From Thermoplasmata archaeon (lineage in GTDB: Archaea; Thermoplasmatota; E2; JACPAO01; JAHFTW01): a DNA stretch of 64,000 bases. Below are positions 5,159-62,975 of the stretch, piece by piece; the first letter of the stretch is position 1; every line of letters begins with the position of its first letter. Made by a program: the position numbers and the translations under genes. The notes under the pieces are model-generated. The model was not told the origin of the DNA. It did not search any database and saw nothing but the letters and a program-made list of their open reading frames with translations. The DNA lies in the NCBI GenBank assembly GCA_034667725.1, contig JAXDQS010000010.1, forward strand, positions 384,001-448,000, written 5' to 3'.

Positions 5159-5767
5159 ATGGGCGCGCCGCGCCGGCTGTCGCTGTCCGACCTGGGCCGA
5201 CCGGCCCTGGTGGACCAAGTGCGCATCGAAGTCCCCCCCGACGCAGGCGAAGGCGCCCGCCACTGGGACGGCCCCCGCGCCGAGATGGACGCCGACGTCT
5301 TCCTGCGCGGCCTGCCCCAACGCGGCCCCCGCGGCGCCTGGGCCTGGATGGTGCGCGTCCACCTCCTGCTGGAGGACCGCACCTCCCTGGTCGCGCATCT
5401 GCCGCTGCGCGCCGGCGTGCCCGCCCCCACCGTGCGCGCCGCCGCGGTCGCCGGGCTGCGGCGCGCCACCGACGACCTCCAGAGCCCACCCGGCCAACGC
5501 GGCGAGGCCCGCCGCGTCCTGGAGCTGCTCACCGGCGAGCCGTTCCGCTACGAGGCCGCCCCCGACTTCCGGCTGATGTTCCAGGAATACCAACGGCTCG
5601 TGGAGCAGCCGTTGCGGCCGGCCCCGCCGCCGCAGCAGGCGCGCCGCAAGGCCCGCCTCCCTGCCGAGTCAAACGAACCATCCACTAGGCCTATGAGCGA
5701 CGAGACGCCGCTTCCGGAGCGGTGCCCCCCTTGGAACCCGAACTCCGCCGCCTCCGTTCCGCCCTGA
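5159..5767 (+). CDS. Hypothetical protein
   Basis: Typical GC3-rich codon usage; no motif recognised. Confidence 0.55.
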   Translation: MGAPRRLSLSDLGRPALVDQVRIEVPPDAGEGARHWDGPRAEMDADVFLRGLPQRGPRGAWAWMVRVHLLLEDRTSLVAHLPLRAGVPAPTVRAAAVAGLRRATDDLQSPPGQRGEARRVLELLTGEPFRYEAAPDFRLMFQEYQRLVEQPLRPAPPPQQARRKARLPAESNEPSTRPMSDETPLPERCPPWNPNSAASVPP

Positions 5768-10519: not shown

Positions 10520-10530
10520 GCCCACGTTCC

Positions 10531-10822
10531 CGCCGACTGGACACAGATTCCACAGGGTTCTGTGGGAATCTTCCGAATCTGGGAAAATCAGTGCCCGTCG
10601 CGAGCGCCGACTGGACATAGGTTCCACAGGGTTCTGTGGGAATCTTCCGAATCTGAGTGAATCGGTGCTCGTCGCGGCCGATTGGACACAGATTCCACAG
10701 ACCATGGCCTTGGAGTTGGCGGGGCCTAGGAACAGAATTCCACAGATGGTCTGTGGGAATCTTCAGAATCTGAGGGAATCCGTGCTCGTCACGCGGCCGC
10801 CGGCTGGACACAGGTTCCACAG
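10531..10822. repeat. Tandem array of ~72-74 bp palindromic REP-like units
   Basis: Units start at 10531, 10605, ~10677 (interrupted) and ~10798 (partial); consensus GCCGACTGGACACAGATTCCACAG-N4-5-CTGTGGGAATCTTCCGAATCTG. Confidence 0.85.
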
Positions 10823-10843
10823 AGTGCTCTCTGCCTCCCAATA

Positions 10844-11028
10844 GCCTCCTGCGTCGGCCAGCGGTCGTCCCTCCGCTTCGCGTTCGGGGCGGAGCCGATT
10901 CCTTCTGCGTGGACGCCCCAGCTCGCTGCGCTCGCTGGGGGCAGTCACTTGAAACGAATCGTCTCCGCCTCCCACTGGCCTCCTGCGTCGGCCAGCGGTC
11001 GTCCCTCCGCTTCGCGTTCGGGGCGGAG
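10844..11028. repeat. Perfect 51-bp direct repeat (10844-10894 and 10978-11028), part of a hairpin element
   Basis: GCCTCCTGCGTCGGCCAGCGGTCGTCCCTCCGCTTCGCGTTCGGGGCGGAG occurs twice. Confidence 0.9.
10945..10968 (-). repeat. Synonymously recoded duplicate of the aCPSF1 3' end (AETIRFK-stop)
   Basis: 21/24 identity to 11054-11077; all differences at codon position 3. Confidence 0.85.
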
Positions 11029-11053
11029 ACCCTCGGTTCCCCGTTCGCTTCGC

Positions 11054-12973
11054 TCACTTGAACCGGATGGTCTCCGCGTTCTGCATCGCCCTGGCCTCGA
11101 TGCCGAACTTGGCCGTGATCGACTCCGCCAGGTCGATGCACTTCGACGCCTCGCCGTGGCCGGTGAGCACCAGCTTCGGCATGGGCTCCATGTTCTGGAT
11201 GAAGTTCATGAGCTGGCGGCGGTCGCAGTGGCCGCTGAAGCCGTCGATGGTCTCGACCGCCAGTTCGACGCGGACGTTGGTGGTGCCGCCCTTCTCCTGG
11301 AGCGGCATCTCGCGGTAGCCGCGCTGGAGCTTGCGGCCGAGGCTGCCCTCCGCGTTGAAGCCGACGAAGCAGAGCACGTTGCGCGCGTCGTCCGCCCAGT
11401 GCTTCATGTACTCCAGCACGGGGCCGCCGGTCATCATGCCGGAGGTCGCAAGCACGATGCAGGGGTCGGGGTCGCCGCAGATCCGCTGCCGCATCTCGTG
11501 GGAGTCGACGCGCTTAAACATCGGCGCCAGCAGCGGGTTGTCGTTCTGCTGGAAGATGCGCTTCTTGAGCTCCTCGTTGAGGTACTCGGGGTAGCAAGTA
11601 TGGAGCGCGGTGGCTTCCCAGATCATGCCGTCGAGGTAGACCGGCTGCTTGGGGATGGCGCCGGTGCGCATCAGCTCCTCCAGCACCAACATGACCTCTT
11701 GGCTGCGGCCGACGGCGAACACCGGGAAGATGGCCTTGCCCTTCCGCTCCGCGCAGGCTTGGAGGACCTTCTTGGTCTGCTCGGCGGCCTCGACGCGGGC
11801 GGGCTGGAGGTTGTCCTTGCCGCCGTAGGTGGACTCCACGATGACGGCGTCGAGGCGGGGAAACTTGTTGTGCGCCGGGTTGAACAGCCAGCTGCGCTCG
11901 TACTTGATGTCGCCCGAGAACGCCACGTTGTAGAGCCCGTCGCCGACGTGGAAGTGGCACACCGACGAACCCAGGATGTGGCCCGCGTCGTGGAAGGTGA
12001 GGCGGATATCGGGGCTGATGTCCGTGGTCTCGCCCCAGTCCACCGCGATGGTGTTCCGCAGCGCCGCCCGCACGTGCTCGGCGTCGAACGGCTTCGGCTT
12101 GCCCTGCGCCTCCGCCACCCGGATGTAGTCCATCGTGAGAAGCGCCATGATGTCGCGTGTCGGCGGCGTGCAGTAGACCGGGCCATCGTAGCCGTACTTG
12201 AACAGCAGCGGGACCAGGCCGCAATGGTCGAGGTGGCCGTGGGTCAGCACTACCGCGTCGAGGCTCGTGAACGGCTGCACCTCGCCCAGGTGGAACATCG
12301 GGGTCGCCGGGTCGTTCTCCTCGAACTTGACGCCACAGTCGACGAGGACCTTCGAGTCCTGCGTCTGCAGCATCGAGCAGGAGCGGCCGACCTCGCGCCA
12401 CGCCCCCAGCGCCGTCATGCGGACCCAGCGCTCGGCCTCGGGGGGCGCGGCGCTGCGGTGCATCCGCCGGCCGACGCGGCGCAGGAACTTGCGGCGCTCG
12501 TCCGCGACCGTGCGCAGGTACTCGCGCACCTCGCGCACGGTGCGGCTCGGGATGGGCGGCGTCCGCACCACCTTCGGGTTCCAGCCGACCTCGGCGCGGA
12601 TGCGGTTCAAGGTCGAGCCCTGCGCGCCGATGGCGACCCCCGGCCGCTGCGCCTCGATGGTGACCTCGCCGATGGCGGCGGCCCAGGAGAGGTCCGTGAC
12701 GCCCGCGTTCTCCGGCACGATGGCCTTGATGCGCTGCGCCGCCTCCTCCGGCGGCATCAGGACGGACGGGTCCGGCCGGACGGCGACGCGCTTCTGGAGC
12801 CCGCGGGCCAGCTTGCGGATGAGCTCGCCGTCGGCCGCGAACGCCTGCGGCGTCTTGGTGTAGAGGACCAGCTCGTGCGCCTCGAAGTCCAGATCGGTGA
12901 CGTCGACGCCGCGCGGCAGGATCCGGTCCGCCTGAGCGCGCATCTCCCGCAGGAGGTCTTCGACGTTGGCCAT
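11054..12973 (-). CDS. fttA: Beta-CASP ribonuclease aCPSF1 / transcription termination factor FttA
   Basis: N-terminal KH domains, REVGRSC, THGHLDHCG, AGHILGSS, ESTYG, FSGHCD; adjacent to proteasome beta as in many archaea. Confidence 0.97.
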   Translation of the reverse strand: MANVEDLLREMRAQADRILPRGVDVTDLDFEAHELVLYTKTPQAFAADGELIRKLARGLQKRVAVRPDPSVLMPPEEAAQRIKAIVPENAGVTDLSWAAAIGEVTIEAQRPGVAIGAQGSTLNRIRAEVGWNPKVVRTPPIPSRTVREVREYLRTVADERRKFLRRVGRRMHRSAAPPEAERWVRMTALGAWREVGRSCSMLQTQDSKVLVDCGVKFEENDPATPMFHLGEVQPFTSLDAVVLTHGHLDHCGLVPLLFKYGYDGPVYCTPPTRDIMALLTMDYIRVAEAQGKPKPFDAEHVRAALRNTIAVDWGETTDISPDIRLTFHDAGHILGSSVCHFHVGDGLYNVAFSGDIKYERSWLFNPAHNKFPRLDAVIVESTYGGKDNLQPARVEAAEQTKKVLQACAERKGKAIFPVFAVGRSQEVMLVLEELMRTGAIPKQPVYLDGMIWEATALHTCYPEYLNEELKKRIFQQNDNPLLAPMFKRVDSHEMRQRICGDPDPCIVLATSGMMTGGPVLEYMKHWADDARNVLCFVGFNAEGSLGRKLQRGYREMPLQEKGGTTNVRVELAVETIDGFSGHCDRRQLMNFIQNMEPMPKLVLTGHGEASKCIDLAESITAKFGIEARAMQNAETIRFK

Positions 12974-14716: not shown

Positions 14717-16126
14717 TCAATACTGGGCGCTCCACCCCATGTGCGTGAAGGCCGTCGGCGTGGCCGAGCCCGTCGAGGTGATGCGCAGGTCCAGCAGGTC
14801 GCCCGCGACGATCGGGACCGTGTGCGTCACGTCGTTGCACGCCGTGGCGGTGCCCGTCACCGTGCACAGGATGCCGGTGTTCGCGCCGTTCTTCCGGAGC
14901 TCGGCCGTCCAGGTGCGGCTGCTGCCGGTGCCCGGGGCGACGTCGAGCTTCACGAACAGGTTCTTCAGCGTGCCCGACGACGGCGCCGGCATCTGCTGCA
15001 GGCTCTCGGTCGTGGAGGAGCCGCCGACGAACGGCTGGTAGAAGTTGTCGCTCCCGGCCGTGTTGGGGACCGAGGCCCCGTTGCTGCCGCCGATGGTGGT
15101 GGCGCCCGTCGCGCCCGTGGAGCCTTGCGGACCGGTGGCGCCCGTGGGGCCTTGCGGCCCCGTGGCGCCGGTGGTCCCTTGCGGCCCGGCGGGCCCGGTG
15201 GCGCCCTGGGGGCCGGTGGGGCCGGTGGCGCCTTGCGGCCCGGTGGCTCCCGTCGGGCCCTGCGGGCCTTGCAGGCCCATGGGCCCCTCGGGACCTTGGG
15301 GGCCCTGCGGGCCCATGGGACCTTCAGGACCCATGGTGCCGGTGGGCCCTTGCGGGCCGGTGGCGCCGGTGGGGCCCTGCGGCCCGGTCGGGCCTTCGGG
15401 TCCGGTGGGGCCGGCGGGGCCCATGGGGCCGGTCGGGCCCTGGGCGCCTGGGGCGCCCGTGGGGCCTTCCGGGCCGGTGGCGCCCGCGGGGCCTGCGGCG
15501 CCCGTCGGGCCCGTGGCGCCGGCCGAGCCCGTGGGGCCGGGGGGGCCGTTGCAGACGTAGGAGGTCGAGGTGACCTCGCCAGGCTCCAGCACCCCGTTGC
15601 CCGCGGTGCCGCTCGGCGTCCCGTCGTCCAGGCCGGAATCGACCCGGACCCCGCCGTGGGCGCAGTTGGCGCCGGGCGGCTCGGAGGTCACCGCCACGAG
15701 CGCCGTCGCCCCGCCGGAGGGCGGGGGCGGCGGAGGCGGCGGGGGCGCGGCGCACTGCTCCGTGCCCTGCGGGAAGGCGAACCAGCAGCTCTCGAAGTTG
15801 CTGGGGCCGCCGGGGAACGAGGCGCGGAAGCGGACCTGGTGGCCGGGCTCGAGGTGGTAGCTGCCGCCCCACCAGGTGTGGTCGCTGGTCCAGGACTGGG
15901 AGGTGAGCGTGACCCAGTCGCCGCCGGTGTCCATCGACTGCACGGAGGAGGCCAGCGCCCCGGCGGAGCCGCCCAGGCGCACCTGGACCCACCACTCGTT
16001 GCCGGAGACCTGCGTGAACGCCACGGTGCGCCCGTCGGGCATGGTCTGCGTGTGGTTGCTGGTTGAAGAAGGAACGAAGAGGGCTCCCAACAACAGGAGC
16101 GCGACGGCAAGCGTGGCACGTTGCAT
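14717..16126 (-). CDS. Secreted collagen-like protein
   Basis: Signal peptide, Trp-rich N-domain, poly-Pro, EPPGANC...YVCNG module, about 50 uninterrupted Gly-X-Y triplets, C-terminal globular domain. Confidence 0.88.
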
Positions 16127-25339: not shown

Positions 25340-25377
25340 AGCGCATCCTGTCGCAACAGGGGAAGGTGCGCGTCAGC

Positions 25378-25432
25378 GCCGCCGAAGCGAAAGCGAGGCG
25401 ACCGGCCTGCCGAGCGCGAAGCAGCGAGGCAG
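25378..25432 (+). repeat. Tandem-GA hairpin pair related to the 11 kb and 48 kb elements
   Basis: CGCC-GAA-GCGAAAGC-GA-GGCG and CTGCC-GA-...-GA-GGCAG. Confidence 0.5.
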
Positions 25433-25501
25433 TCCAACATGCCGGCTGGGTTTGCAGCCGCACCCCAACCATTTAGAAGCGGCCCTTTCCTCGCGCACGC
25501 A

Positions 25502-43956: not shown

Positions 43957-46026
43957 GTGGCCAACCGCCTGGCGTCCGAGCCAAGCCCTTACCTGCGGCA
44001 GCACGCGGACAACCCGGTCGAGTGGTGGCCGTGGGGCGAGGCGGCGTTCGCGGAGGCGCGGCGGCGCGACGTGCCGGTGTTCCTCTCGATCGGCTACGCG
44101 ACCTGCCACTGGTGCCACGTCATGGCGCACGAGTCGTTCGAGGACGCCGAGGTGGCGCGCCGCATGAACGAGGCGTTCGTCTGCGTCAAGGTGGACCGCG
44201 AGGAGCGTCCCGACCTGGACGACGCGTACATGGCGGCGTGCCAGCTGATGACGGGGGCCGGCGGCTGGCCGCTCACGGTGCTGCTGACGCACGGCAAGAA
44301 GCCGTTCTTCGCCGGCACCTACTTCCCGAAGGAGACACGGCACGGCCGCATCGGCATGATGGACCTGCCCGGCCGCGTGGCCGAGGCGTGGCGGGCGCAA
44401 CGCAAGGAGCTGGAGGCGCAGGCGGACCACCTCATGCTGCACGTGACGGGCGAGCCGCACGGCCATGACGACGAGCCCGCGACGCAGAAGCCGGCGGCCT
44501 TGGACCTCGGCGTGCTGCGGCGCGGCGGCGACGCATTGGCGGCCCGCTTTGACCCCGAGCACGGCGGCTTTGGCGGGTCGCCCAAGTTCCCGTCCCCGCA
44601 CATCCTGCTGTTCCTGCTGCGGCTGGCCGACCGCGGCGACGCCGAAGCCGAAGCGATGGTGGTGGCGACCTTGGAGAAGATGGCCGCGGGCGGCGTCCGC
44701 GACCACCTCGGCGGCGGCTTCCACCGCTACAGCACCGACCCCGAGTGGCGCCTGCCGCACTTCGAGAAGATGCTGTACGACCAGGCGATGCTCGCGATGG
44801 CGTACGTCGAGGCCCACCAGCGCACCGGCCGCGCCGGCTTCGCCGAGGTGGCCCGCTCGACCCTGGACTACGTGCTGCGCGACCTGCACGACCCCGCCGG
44901 CGGCTTCCGCTGCGCCGAGGACGCCGACTCCGAGGGCGAGGAGGGCACGTTCTACCTGTGGCGGCGCGACGAGATCCTGGCGGCGCTCGGCCCGCGCGAC
45001 GGCGCCGCGTTCTGCCAAGCCTACGGCGTCACCGCCGAGGGCAACTTCCTCGACGAGGCCACCAAGCGCCGCACCGGCGCCAACGTGCTGCACCGCGTCG
45101 GCGACGTCGCCGGCCTGGAGGCGGCGCACGCCCGGCTTGCCGCCGTGCGCGCCAAGCGCGAGCGCCCCCTGCTGGACGACAAAGTGCTCACCGACTGGAA
45201 CGGCCTCGCCCTGGCCGCGTTCGCCAAGGCCGCCGTGGCGCTCGCGGAGCCGCGCTACGCCGAGGCCGCCACGCGCGCCGCCGCGTTCCTGCGCGACAAG
45301 ATGCGCCAGCCCGACGGGCGGCTCCGGCACCGCCACCACCACGGCCAGGCCGACGAGGTCGCGTTCCTCGACGACCACGCCTTCCTGCTGTGGGGCTTGG
45401 TCGAGCTCTACGGCGCCACCTTCGACGCCGCGCACCTGGCCTGGGCCGTCGAGGTCGCGGGCCAACTGGAGGCGCGCTTCCTGCACCCCAGCGGCGCGTT
45501 CCAGCAGGCCCCGAAGGACGCCGACGAGCTGGGGGCGGCCCGCCGCGAGGCCTACGACGGCGCCCTGCCGAGCGGCAACTCCGCCGCCGCCTACGCGCTC
45601 CACAAGCTCGGCCTGCTCACGGGCGAGCCCCGCTGGACGCGCCTGGCCAACGGCGTGGCCGATGCGTTCGCCGCTGGCCTGGCCGCGTCGCCGCCCGCCT
45701 ACGCCATGATGCTGTGCGCGCTCGACCTCGCCCTCGGCCCGACGCGCGAAGCCGTCGTGGCCGGGACCGGGCCGGACGCGGACGCGATGGTGCGCCTGCT
45801 GCAGGCCGGCCACGCGCCGCGGACGGTGGTGCTGCGCGCGACGCCCGCACTTGCCAAGGCCGCGCCCTGGACGAAGGAGCACCTGGCGCGCGGCGGGGCG
45901 GCGACCGCCTACGTCTGCGAAGGCCACGCCTGCAAGGCGCCGGCGACGGACCTCAGGCAGCTGCGGGAAGCCCTTGCGGGTCCGGCAGCGCGCCCCACTC
46001 CACCATCTCGGCCGCAAGCCGGCTGA
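43957..46026 (+). CDS. YyaL/SPATA20-like thioredoxin-domain protein (DUF255)
   Basis: [54 protein letters not shown]. Confidence 0.95.
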
Positions 46027-46381
46027 CCCGGCGCTGGATGTCGTCGCGCAGGAAGCGCACGGTCTCGTACTCCAGGTTGGCGGGGTCATCGAGCGGCCAA
46101 TGCTCGGTGACCGGCAGGTCGGGGTCGGTGGCGGCGACCCCCGGCCCCATGCTGATCACGCGCTCGTAGCGCGGCAGGTCGCCGAACTCGACGTGGCGCG
46201 GCCGCAGCCCGCTGATGTCGATGCCGCGCTCCTGCATCGCAAGGACGGCGCTGGGCGCCACCGCCCGGGCCGGCATGGTCCCGGCGGAGTCCGCGTCGAG
46301 GCCGAGCGCCCGCGCGAAGCCGACGGCGATCTGGCCGCGGCACGAGTTGCCCACGTCCACGAAGAGCACGCGATGGGGCAT
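45953..46381 (-). CDS. ArsC/LMW-PTP-fold protein with nucleophile Cys replaced by Asp
   Basis: [33 protein letters not shown]. Confidence 0.8.
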
Positions 46382-46536
46382 GACCCGCGTTTGCACCGGG
46401 ACCGTCTTGATGCTTTCGGCCAGAGGGCGCGAAGGTCGCGGCGCGGCGGCCGGTTCCGTGGCCCCGTTGTCCCTTTGTGTGCATCGGTTCACCCTTGGCT
46501 ACCGGTCCTTCAAGTCGCGCGGGGCGTGGCCGCGGC

Positions 46537-47145
46537 ATGGACCTGCGGCCGGAGGCCTCCGAGGCGGCCGGGACGTTCTTCCTGATGCTGGCAGGCGGCG
46601 CAGCCATCCTCCAGGGCCTTGGGGCGGACGCCGTCGCGTTGGCCTTCGGCGGCGTCGTCCTGGTCCTCGTCTACGCCTTGGGCCCCGTCGGCGGCGCCCA
46701 CTTCAACCCGGCCGTCACGCTCGGGTTCGCGGCCACCCAACGCTTCCCCTGGCGCCGCGTGCCCGCCTACCTGGCCGCCCAAGGCCTCGGCGCCCTCGCC
46801 GCCTGCCTCTTGCTCTTGCCGCTCGCGCCCAGCCTGGCGCCGATCGTCGTCCCCACGCCAAGCCTTGCGCCGGCCCTGCTGGCCGAGGCCGCGGGCACCT
46901 TCCTCTTGGCGCTCGTCATCGCGGCGGTCGCCAAGCGGAGCGACGCCGGCCTGGCCATCGGCGGCGCCGTCGCCGTCGCGGCCCTCGCCTTCGGCCCCTT
47001 CGGCGCCGGCGTCAACCCGGCCCGCGCCCTCGCGCCCGCCCTCGTGGCGGGGGCGTGGGGCGGCCTGTGGCCTCATCTGGTGGCGCCGGCCTTCGGCGGC
47101 GTGGCCGGCATGGCGACCTGGACCCTGCTGGAGGCATGGCGATGA
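46537..47145 (+). CDS. MIP/aquaporin family channel (probable arsenite channel by context)
   Basis: GAHFNPAVT and GVNPARAL; coupled to arsC. Confidence 0.88.
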   Translation: MDLRPEASEAAGTFFLMLAGGAAILQGLGADAVALAFGGVVLVLVYALGPVGGAHFNPAVTLGFAATQRFPWRRVPAYLAAQGLGALAACLLLLPLAPSLAPIVVPTPSLAPALLAEAAGTFLLALVIAAVAKRSDAGLAIGGAVAVAALAFGPFGAGVNPARALAPALVAGAWGGLWPHLVAPAFGGVAGMATWTLLEAWR

Positions 47146-47558
47146 CGTTCCGCGTCCTGTTCGCTTGCGTCGGCAACTCCGCCCGCAGCCAGATGGCGCA
47201 AGGCTTCGCGCGCCACCTCGGCGGCGCCCAGGTCGAGGCCCGCAGCGGCGGCAGCGTCCCGTTGGGGCATGTCCTGCCGGAGGCGGTCGCGGTGATGCGG
47301 GAGCGCGGCATCGACATCTCCCAGCACGCGAGCCAGGGGTTCGACGAGGCCTGGGTGCGCGAGGCGTGCGACCTGGTGGTGACGATGGGCTGCGGCGACG
47401 ACGCCTGCCCCGCCTTCGCGGGGAAGCCGATGGAGGAGTGGGCGCTGCCCGACCCGAAGGGCCAGCCCATCGCGGCGTTCCGGGCGGTGCGCGACGACAT
47501 CGAGCGGCGGGTGCGGGAGTTGTTGGAGAAGAGGAAGAGGCCCAGCGCAGGGAACTAG
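47142..47558 (+). CDS. arsC: Arsenate reductase, LMW-PTP type
   Basis: CVGNSARSQMA (CX5R), TMGCGDDACP, WALPDP. Confidence 0.9.
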   Translation: MTFRVLFACVGNSARSQMAQGFARHLGGAQVEARSGGSVPLGHVLPEAVAVMRERGIDISQHASQGFDEAWVREACDLVVTMGCGDDACPAFAGKPMEEWALPDPKGQPIAAFRAVRDDIERRVRELLEKRKRPSAGN

Positions 47559-47652: not shown

Positions 47653-48012
47653 ATGCCCTTGCTTCACCGGAGTGAAGTGGCCCGGCTCCCCGTCCGCAAC
47701 GACTGCATCTGCACCGTCGGCGGCCTCATCGACCTCGTCGGCAAGAAGTGGACGATGTGCATCATCGTGACCCTGGGCAACCGCCCCGCCATCCGCTTCA
47801 ACGAGCTGCGCGACACCTTGGTCGGCATCAGCCCGCGCACGCTGTCCGAGACCCTCAAGGCGCTGGAGTCGGAAGGCCTGGTGCGGCGCGAGGCGTTCGC
47901 CGCCATCCCGCCCCGCGTCGAGTACCGGCTCACCGACGAAGGCGCCAGGCTGCGCGAGGCGGTGCGGCCGCTGATGGAGTATGCGGCAGGAAGGCCTGGG
48001 GCAGTCTGCTGA
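47653..48012 (+). CDS. HxlR-family winged-helix regulator
   Basis: C...LVGKKW, RFNEL, ISPRTLS, PPRVEYRLT. Confidence 0.9.
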   Translation: MPLLHRSEVARLPVRNDCICTVGGLIDLVGKKWTMCIIVTLGNRPAIRFNELRDTLVGISPRTLSETLKALESEGLVRREAFAAIPPRVEYRLTDEGARLREAVRPLMEYAAGRPGAVC

Positions 48013-48177
48013 ACGGGCGTGGAGGGTCGCGCGTCGGCGCGCGCCGAACGCGAAGCGGAGGCGATGGGTGGGTGGCTCGCGGAGCGAAAGCCACCCGCCA
48101 AGGGGTCCTAGGGGCGAAGCCCCTAGATGGGGTGCGCGGCTGGAAGGCCGGGGGCCGTCTGCTGAACGGTCTGCTGA
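48013..48177 (+). repeat. Hairpin element followed by a recoded duplicate (48136-48165) of the HxlR gene 3' end
   Basis: Core CCGAACGCGAAGCGGAGG shared with the 11 kb element; CTAGGGGC-GAA-GCCCCTAG hairpin; AAGRPGAVC-stop repeated. Confidence 0.85.
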
Positions 48178-48180
48178 CGA

Positions 48181-48723
48181 TCAGGCGTTCAGGACCACGA
48201 GCTCGGGCTTCTCCACCCGCAGCTCCTTCGCGAGCTTGCGAATCCGCTTCTCGCAGTCGTCGCGCATCTGGCGGTAGGCCTCAAGCGGCAGGCCCTGCGG
48301 GTCCAGGAGGTTCCACTCCAGGACGTTCTGCTGGCTGCGCCACGGCTTCGGCAGCGAGTCGCCCATGGTGATGACGCGGTCGAACGCCTCCAGCCGGGTG
48401 ACGTCGAGCGGCTTCGGGCGGAAGTGCGCGATGTCGATGCCCTGGTCGGCCATGACGGCGACGGCCTCGGGGGCCACCCGGGTCCCGGGGAAGGTGCCGG
48501 CCGACTCGGCGTGGAAGCCGTAGATGGTGGCGTAGGCCTGCGCGACCTGGCTGCGGGCGGCGTTGCCGACGTCCACGAACAGCAGGCGGTACTGGCGGTG
48601 CTTCTCGCGCTGGACGTTGCCGGGCGCCGCGTCGCGGCCACGGAACGGGGCAAGCAGGGCGTCGAACGCGCCCCCGAAAAGGCCCCGGCGGGCAGGCTGG
48701 GCGGCGGGCTGGGCGTCGGTCAT
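48181..48723 (-). CDS. Second ArsC/LMW-PTP-fold protein with Cys->Asp
   Basis: LLFVDVGNAARSQ, ESAGT, VITMG, WNLLDP. Confidence 0.8.
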   Translation of the reverse strand: MTDAQPAAQPARRGLFGGAFDALLAPFRGRDAAPGNVQREKHRQYRLLFVDVGNAARSQVAQAYATIYGFHAESAGTFPGTRVAPEAVAVMADQGIDIAHFRPKPLDVTRLEAFDRVITMGDSLPKPWRSQQNVLEWNLLDPQGLPLEAYRQMRDDCEKRIRKLAKELRVEKPELVVLNA

Positions 48724-48866
48724 GGCGCTCGTCCAGCCAGCCCCCGCAGGCAAAAACGTATCGGAGGTGGCCTGCCGCCGCGTTCACGCCCGATTTCTTC
48801 CACCGCTGCTCGGCAGGTCAGTCTCCGTGCCCACCATTTCTTACGTCAAACCCGCTTTTTTCCCCC

Positions 48867-53524: not shown

Positions 53525-53527
53525 CGG

Positions 53528-53587
53528 ACCACGGATTGCACGGATTCCACGGACCAGAGGTTCCGTGCAATCCGTGGCATCCGTGGT
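53528..53587. repeat. Palindromic element of 9-nt CACGGATT units
   Basis: ACCACGGATTGCACGGATTCCACGGA...TCCGTGCAATCCGTGGCATCCGTGGT just after the serS stop. Confidence 0.88.
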
Positions 53588-62913: not shown

Positions 62914-62975
62914 GACCACGGATTTCACGGATTGCACGGAACCAAGTTTCCGTGGCATCCGTGCAATCCGTGGTC
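62914..62975. repeat. Second copy of the CACGGATT palindromic element
   Basis: GACCACGGATTTCACGGATTGCACGGA...TCCGTGGCATCCGTGCAATCCGTGGTC, abutting the stop of the 62974-63372 gene. Confidence 0.88.

Follow-up and report, generated by a model that had tools for sequence, protein, structure and literature searches.

The attP site of an integrase-driven element supplies a replacement for the gene end at which the element integrates, and the product is bounded by attL/attR-like repeats. In integron attC cassettes, and in the attP of IMEX and CTX-phi, a folded single strand is itself the recombination site and the newest cassettes lie nearest the entry point, at one fixed site (attI or dif) and with a dedicated or Xer recombinase. 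Integrase elements seated in gene ends include e14 and phage 21 in icd, and the tRNA islands (PMC12540744). In the mitochondrial mORF hybrids (Allomyces atp6-ORF360; Glomus atp6, atp9, cox2 and nad3) the native C-terminus has given way to a foreign one and persists, displaced, downstream of it, and the atp6 copies are 91% alike as protein and 63.5% as DNA (PMC3630166). In the IS200/IS605 peel-and-paste elements and the REP/RAYT system the guide is 4 nt long, the target is a fixed tetranucleotide and the transposase is of the Y1 type (PMC5934647), and NTS repeats, the partners of the Ssn nucleases, are multicopy hairpins that act as ssDNA and affect recombination (PMC11893778).

In our analysis of a 64,000-nt stretch of DNA from a Thermoplasmata archaeon (hereafter the window), a doubled gene end proves real and recurrent, and it points to an apparently undescribed kind of small mobile DNA which carries a gene end with it, even essential genes thereby surviving the insertion. 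As in the mORF hybrids, the two copies resemble each other more closely in protein than in DNA, and the replacement terminus would lie upstream and the native one downstream; the mORF hybrids carry a LAGLIDADG or GIY-YIG ORF, whereas the archaeal elements are protein-less and 40–130 nt long, enter about 35 unrelated loci in one chromosome, stack and, in some cases, carry a guide. They have in common with the integrase elements direct repeats made of a gene terminus (25 CDS and 10 tRNA loci) and several tRNA junctions in the T-loop, but lack integrase and cargo, and a single subfamily enters many different targets. The presumed folding strand and the stacking are those of integrons and IMEX, yet each archaeal site is a different gene terminus. 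Likenesses to IS200/IS605, PATE and REP-RAYT are the ssDNA hairpins, DNA–DNA pairing of the target with an internal guide and a circular intermediate, which is presumed in the archaeon; here, however, guides are 10–20 nt long, there is no target consensus, 22–94 nt are duplicated, and Y1_Tnp (PF01797) was found in none of the order's 38 genomes, all of them incomplete MAGs. The guides of our class-B elements pair with the top strand on the right-hand side of the junction, in the manner of the right target guide of the IS110 bridge RNA (PMC11208160), but no IS110 DEDD recombinase (PF01548) was found in the genome, a two-loop target/donor architecture was not seen, and the element carries a gene end. 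Gene-end replacement is not described for NTS repeats and Ssn nucleases in the accessible part of the published account (PMC11893778), and no small single-domain GIY-YIG (Ssn-type) nuclease was found in the archaeon, where the sole GIY-YIG match is UvrC. Finally, the DGR target hairpin likewise has a GC-rich stem and a purine loop just 3' of the gene (PMC3240598), and the same 25-nt motif follows FGE-sulfatase genes; the archaeal loci differ in having no reverse transcriptase and no adenine-specific change, and in showing insertion instead of replacement. The hairpin motif after FGE-sulfatase stops was seen in L182 (3820–3845), where bAvd and a reverse transcriptase follow, and also in L140, L161, L168 and L175.

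The elements are thus not members of the mORF, integrase, IS608 or IS110 systems, whose defining enzymes were not found. RVT_1, Y1_Tnp, IS110, TnpB, DprA and ComEC were all without a match in the archaeon's own genome, which is 90% complete, and a reverse transcriptase was found in one of the order's 38 incomplete genomes. The genome does have three HNH genes and a single tyrosine recombinase (integrase) match, PF00589, which adjoins a tRNA-Pro; none of these is linked to an element. Among the relatives, no endonuclease gene recurs beside the elements and no cargo-bearing version of an element was seen. We infer that the enzyme lies outside the element, as a host recombination or repair enzyme or an unrecognised factor acting in trans. 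An earlier note on this DNA had called the process possibly undescribed; the literature searched, including a 2026 intergenic-atlas preprint and few subscription journals, yielded no description of gene-end mini-elements.

The hxlR and aCPSF1 loci

Two gene ends in the window carry the layout, and a third, related element lies elsewhere in it. Their features are as follows.

47653–48012, forward strand: intact gene for an hxlR-family regulator of 119 aa (ORF; Pfam PF01638, E 9e-23)
47973–48016, forward: live (upstream) copy of a 44-nt repeat; zone Y, where all changes are synonymous, occupies 47983–48012 and includes the stop in use
48013–48126, forward: class-A element of subfamily A2, about 114 nt, with 8 full copies in the genome; DNA fold z −3.2
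48029–48042, forward: hairpin H0, covariation in 4/5 pairs
48044–48061, forward: module H1, with a GAA triloop and tandem G.A; 18-mer common to the aCPSF1 elements
48066–48099, forward: long variable hairpin H2, covariation in 8/14 pairs
48108–48126, forward: terminal hairpin H3, GGGGC-GAA-GCCCC, which defines class A
48126–48135, forward: X', the decayed 5' zone of the downstream copy, with two non-silent A>G and one T>C
48136–48169, forward: Y', the putative displaced gene end, 9 codons and a stop, 3 silent changes
48169–48177, forward: third gene-end remnant of 9 nt, adjoining the displaced copy
48181–48753, reverse: LMW-PTP/ArsC-like gene (ORF, Pfam), a convergent neighbour with an uncertain start codon
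11054–12973, reverse: aCPSF1/FttA gene (Pfam Beta-Casp, KH_TffA), live end at 11054–11077
10969–11053, reverse: class-B element 1 at aCPSF1
11023–11039, reverse: antisense segment (guide) inside element 1; best match the live gene end, score 12 versus 10.5
10945–10968, reverse: putative displaced aCPSF1 end, 3 silent changes
10835–10944, reverse: class-B element 2 at aCPSF1, guide at 10888–10901
10828–10834, reverse: 7-nt remnant after element 2
25360–25461, forward: third related element (sister subfamily, same superfamily), just upstream of a gene start

The duplication of the HxlR 3' end with three silent changes, first reported in the earlier note, is borne out by the sequence and by Logan unitigs without differences. 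The three differences between the end copies (47983–48016 and 48136–48169), at 47988, 47997 and 48003, each fall in a third codon position and are silent. The full repeat is longer, 44 nt at an offset of 153 nt (47973–48016 and 48126–48169), and starts 10 nt before the edge drawn earlier; those first 10 nt hold further mismatches: two A>G changes, at 47978 and 47981, which are non-silent and fall in second codon positions, and a T>C change at 47982. The argument that six of six mismatches at the hxlR and aCPSF1 loci fall in third positions, with a chance of about (1/3)^6, therefore keeps its silent changes, which are real, and loses its arithmetic, which rested on hand-picked edges with three more hxlR mismatches outside them. 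Directly after Y' stand the same 4 nt that open the element. The adjoining 9-nt remnant is probably a collapsed older stack layer, a reading made by analogy with the stacks described below. Homologues of the HxlR protein are labelled Thermoplasmatota.

Both end copies of hxlR (47983–48012 and its copy) have very atypical codons (index 0.12 and 0.23; gene-end median 0.63), and both read GGA AGG where the sister species has GCG CGG, which together suggests earlier rounds of replacement. Beside the locus, two LMW-PTP/ArsC-like genes (45953–46492 and 48181–48753) have Asp in place of the catalytic Cys of a central arsC (47073–47558).

The hxlR and aCPSF1 elements have a spaced motif and an exact 18-mer in common, in the same orientation, as the earlier note had proposed. 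Its description of a single element core holds for the H1 module; at aCPSF1 the GAGGGTC core overlaps the locus-specific antisense segment and is partly guide, partly H1. The two elements thus share one module and belong to different classes, A and B. No flanking duplication was found at the element at 25360–25461. A CACAGA/CACGGA-rich repeat family (10523–10830, 53527–53587 and 62914–62975) has many genomic copies, often directly after hairpin elements, and presumably resembles the repeats that occur beside GxxExxY genes. A long repeat with 9/27-nt periodicity and a collagen-like appearance occupies 15047–15613.

Element fold and the class-B guide

The hxlR element is made up of four hairpins, in which GNA triloops and tandem G.A steps occur, folds better as DNA than its shuffles (the z of −3.2 listed above) and has no match in Rfam 15 at the gathering score. 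Over seven aligned copies of subfamily A2, 15 of 34 pairs show compensatory change, a number reached in 0 of 500 shuffles, with slid registers giving 2–4. GNA mini-hairpins are unusually stable DNA motifs, and the GNA triloops accordingly favour ssDNA as the folding molecule, short of proof.

Class-A elements, such as that at hxlR, end in a GGGGC-GNA-GCCCC hairpin. Class-B elements, such as those at aCPSF1, have no such terminal hairpin and carry instead an antisense segment complementary to the start of the duplicated stretch. Pairing of these segments with their own targets summed to 328.5, against 269 ± 8 for shuffled element–target pairs (0/20000), and 10 of 38 elements ranked their own target first, among them aCPSF1 element 1 (of 38 targets). 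The earlier note had supposed that gene ends are targeted regardless of their sequence, a view that the target-matched segments of class B contradict. Between the end of the guide and the junction lie 51 ± 4 nt, and most class-B elements fold as a three-way junction of guide:Y stem, H1 and H2, the junction lying at the base of H2. Where elements are stacked, the guide fits the gene-end copy upstream better than the abutting copy in 6/6 cases (10:1 overall, p 0.006); the guide of aCPSF1 element 2, for example, matches the displaced copy just upstream of it with a score of 12.5 versus 6.0. Because the guide fits the copy upstream of its element, the moving unit would be gene end plus element.

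No internal guide was found in class A, hxlR included, in any window from −24 to +32, and the hxlR site is an ordinary member of this guide-less class. A 'sense +16' signal in class A proved to be leftover repeat. The X' zone can be aligned above the null across loci, with degenerate homology (90 identities observed, 47 under the null). A reading of X' as a wobble guide, in which A>G and C>T changes preserve G.T pairing to the target's bottom strand, was rejected, since its 30:10 bias is matched by shuffled G-rich tails (ratio 0.75 versus 0.74) with no class-A excess; nor did pairing of X' with the conserved pre-H1 segment of A2 rise above background.

Recurrence in the genome and its relatives

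The genome (2.32 Mb, 71% GC, 90% complete) comes from a soil-metagenome assembly. Within 320 nt downstream of its 2095 called genes, 26 repeats score at least 15, where shuffled pairings give 1–3. Altogether about 35 genomic sites combine a working end, a hairpin element and a differently spelled spare copy: 25 ends of protein genes, a hand-curated list from which paralogous coding matches were removed and which takes in a few loci scoring 13–14, where chance matches are not negligible, and at least 10 tRNAs. An all-repeat scan of the genome gave the 10 tRNA loci, with two tRNA-Leu arrays besides. Repeats are 22–94 nt long and spacers 37–220 nt, the latter without a called gene. Targets include the large and small subunits of PolD, Cdc6, AsnRS, FtsZ, S15, DRG, aCPSF1 and SecY, the names being read from the sequences, with S15, FtsZ and DRG confirmed by Pfam on orthologues. 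The 25 junctions have no consensus. The tRNA junctions cluster in the T-loop (16–20 nt from the end) or about 26–28 nt from the end.

Mismatches at the 25 gene ends are 51 synonymous versus 9 non-synonymous, and with codon-blind edges 48 of 60 fall in third positions. Neutral decay, for which 23% synonymous changes are expected, is rejected (p 6e-24), as is an exact duplication in which selection acts on the live copy alone (38% expected; p 5e-14); chance repeats taken as a control gave 19 synonymous and 142 non-synonymous changes (12%). The excess implies that both copies are former or present working gene ends. Some repeats are perfect or nearly so.

A gene-end copy follows 14 of the 26 exact class-A terminal hairpins, as against 20 of 1166 random points after stops, and 12 have no repeat. 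These figures, with the synonymous excess, uphold the earlier suggestion of a general process that pairs the element with recoded gene ends, and they show that the association extends to elements elsewhere. In all 14 cases the intact gene lies on the 5' side of the element; one of them is a tRNA-Ser gene at which the duplication comprises the 5' half and DNA upstream of it, the element being antisense. This uniform polarity, antisense case included, argues against copying from mRNA. A process confined to gene 3' ends, as first proposed, is too narrow, for tRNA 3' ends and, with the element antisense, 5' ends have also been entered. The skew of the genome is too weak for a test of element orientation against replication, and a BLAST search of the whole genome for gene-end copies at a distance returned noisy results with none that convinced.

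Several ends are stacked. At SecY, three copies of the last 22 codons and stop encode the same peptide with 6–9 of 23 codons different, including a Ser AGC/TCC swap and three different stops, and a fourth, shorter copy follows a second element type. The stack spans the end of contig C8 and the start of C5 (L129:1–551, reverse; L130:1–300, reverse), and given this contig break the copy number may exceed four. Three copies occur at DUF7121, tRNA-Leu and others, and the three DUF7121 ends have matching guides. At C2:2250–3300 (reverse) two tandem glutamine-amidotransferase genes are followed by an element, after which the end of the first gene appears again; a unit may here have captured an entire gene.

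The layout is present in more than ten genomes that were assembled separately. The terminal hairpin exceeds its reversed control in many members of the family, and in relatives 27 of 75 inspected copies have the flanking repeat, a few of them tandem or weak. Orthologous targets in other species (L039, L050, L106, L109) have different elements, some at different junctions, and the displaced ends in these four each match their own lineage. Tandem units occur in L059 and L082. Two relatives show the start of a gene duplicated with the element antisense: an ABCE1/RLI-like start with five silent changes (L111, about 1900–2050) and a TatD-like start whose 5'-end version has silent changes (L078, about 1890–2110), both names being read from peptides. 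Farther afield, the 3' end of a tRNA is duplicated in a Vicinamibacterales genome (L185, near 5678–5702), where the same hairpin has the mirror polarity, and a 40%-GC metagenome contig (L031, L032) holds a tandem terminal-hairpin array with no gene-end copy. Across 87 mostly bacterial stretches the terminal hairpin is usually a REP-like repeat without gene-end duplication, and a pattern scan of metagenomes gave two matches, both unrelated.

Orthologues of hxlR and aCPSF1 in the genus have no such duplication. In a sister species (run SRR34092480; 67–88% of same-residue codons identical) no duplicated end follows hxlR, S15, FtsZ, DUF655, DRG or M20, the six loci compared; turnover is fast relative to the sister species. 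Its hxlR stops at the same codon and has GCC in common with the displaced copy, and X' retains the C of its TAC, so that codon votes at hxlR stand at one for the displaced copy and none for the live one. The displaced DUF655 copy has the C-terminus of the sister species, the middle DUF7121 copy and its flank equal the live end and flank of the sister, and DUF655, DUF7121 and the M20 peptidase are the diagnostic loci for a displaced downstream copy. The identification of the downstream copy as the displaced original, made in the earlier note, thus finds agreement at hxlR and these three loci, while over all loci the vote of 15:10, which is not significant, is no more than suggestive. Codon typicality, offered earlier as its mark, shows no genome-wide direction (Wilcoxon p 0.89).

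Mechanism and rival explanations

Our current working hypothesis, towards which we lean slightly, is that these are non-autonomous mobile mini-elements and that a folded ssDNA mini-circle integrates much as a prophage attP does. That the moving unit is a gene or tRNA terminus of 20–95 nt plus a hairpin element of 40–130 nt, and that it recurs, is well supported; the circle and the chemistry of exchange we infer. The unit would leave the donor chromosome as ssDNA, probably as a circle that closes between the last hairpin of the element and the gene end it carries. For class B, the guide would pair with the carried end to form the three-way junction, a folded attP-like site; in class A, including hxlR, the homology of X' and Y themselves would choose the site. 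Exchange into the same position of another allele would give, in order, gene, carried end, element and displaced end. As the carried end would be the live end in every round, selection would act at the protein level and drift only at silent sites, and the same would hold for the displaced end. Repeated entry would build stacks with the newest unit nearest the gene, and deletions would erode them, leaving such traces as the hxlR 9-nt remnant. Against this model stand the missing enzyme, the lack of a guide at hxlR, the 15:10 vote and the lack of a junction consensus. No circle, excised allele or skipping joint was found in the Logan contigs of two runs, contigs being prone to drop rare variants.

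A stronger form of the proposal, which we put forward tentatively and judge rather doubtful, is of a naturally programmable, protein-less element: a folded ssDNA of about 100 nt with a 10–20-nt guide and its own terminus, which with host enzymes only could enter any gene or tRNA end, moving recoded termini between strains and species and leaving dated stacks.

The best-surviving alternative, unlikely in our estimate yet to be taken seriously, is homing through a long homology arm, in which donor gene plus element recombines by homology within the gene, and a nuclease cut or microhomology joint beside the last hairpin connects the element to the gene end of the recipient; the unit carried would be unchanged, with no circle. 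It resembles homology-facilitated illegitimate recombination and the route thought to make the mitochondrial mORF hybrids, and those of Glomus and Allomyces share the layout (PMC3630166). Product, polarity and synonymous divergence are predicted equally by this route; a short precise swap and a long arm would be expected to leave the same product. The above-null homology of X' fits it, as do the Ssn nucleases, which cut ssDNA beside hairpin repeats (PMC11893778). Its enzymes, however, are not in evidence: the genome's GIY-YIG match is UvrC, DprA and ComEC were not found there, and the relatives have no recurrent endonuclease beside the elements. Alone, moreover, it does not account for the way the guide follows the carried end at a constant spacing.

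Insertion of a MITE- or REP-like element with a long, variable target-site duplication, where only gene-sparing insertions survive and one or other copy is later exchanged for a functional allele through ordinary recombination between strains, is improbable overall and for class B largely refuted. De novo insertion does happen, as the same subfamily sits at unrelated loci, and the perfect or near-perfect repeats and the class-A hairpins without one would fit. Without allele swapping this explanation falls with the rejected expectation of 38% (p 5e-14), and with it crossovers in tracts of 22–50 nt would be needed far above the mutation rate and always at the end of the element. Symmetric duplication also predicts both polarities, where one was observed, and neither the locus-specific guides nor the four recoded SecY ends are explained.

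It is very improbable that both ends are used in one cell, gene end plus element being spliced from the RNA or read through. Such use would account for change at synonymous sites only, and the 3' boundary of class B at the base of a helix is as in self-splicing RNAs. Read-through and frame preservation were nevertheless ruled out by an in-frame stop inside the hxlR element and by spacings that do not keep the frame (11:7:6 by remainder); the missing Rfam match, the antisense elements at 5' ends with promoter DNA duplicated, and the lack of duplications in the sister species also tell against both uses.

A DGR-like or retro process, in which a reverse transcriptase would write the downstream copy, acting as template repeat, into the gene end, is less probable still. 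The class-A terminal hairpin does stand 20–75 nt after FGE-sulfatase stops in at least five bacteria, in one of them followed by bAvd and a reverse transcriptase, and the spot after a gene is where DGR target hairpins lie (PMC3240598). Mutagenic homing is refuted by the spectrum, since adenine is not singled out among the differences (A stands in the downstream copy at 7/51), and the one reverse transcriptase found in the 38 genomes lies outside this one.

An assembly artefact joining two strain alleles through the repeat, conceivable in a soil-metagenome assembly whose unitig path over hxlR breaks at a shared k-mer within the element, can be practically dismissed, as the two Logan unitigs of the probable source run that tile the locus (a separate assembly, not independent DNA) each hold one copy and its half of the element with zero differences and equal depth (9–10), and as the layout recurs in the separately assembled genomes. 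In a second sequencing run a low-depth contig over 47900–48047 with 16 differences was seen and left out of the evidence.

Returning to the mini-element model, it is interesting to speculate on what such elements mean. The small size of the elements, together with a long guide matched to the locus and the lack of an enzyme within them, implies a recombinase, host or unrecognised, that takes folded ssDNA with programmable specificity and would be of interest as a tool. The shared terminal hairpin may bear on the factor that recognises DGR target hairpins, and the order in which invasions took place is preserved in the stacks (four ends at SecY, three at DUF7121). About 1% of the genes of this archaeon and at least 10 of its tRNAs, PolD, Cdc6, SecY, FtsZ and AsnRS included, appear to end in a terminus supplied by an element; if so, this would be an unnoticed, micro-scale route of gene transfer into essential genes.
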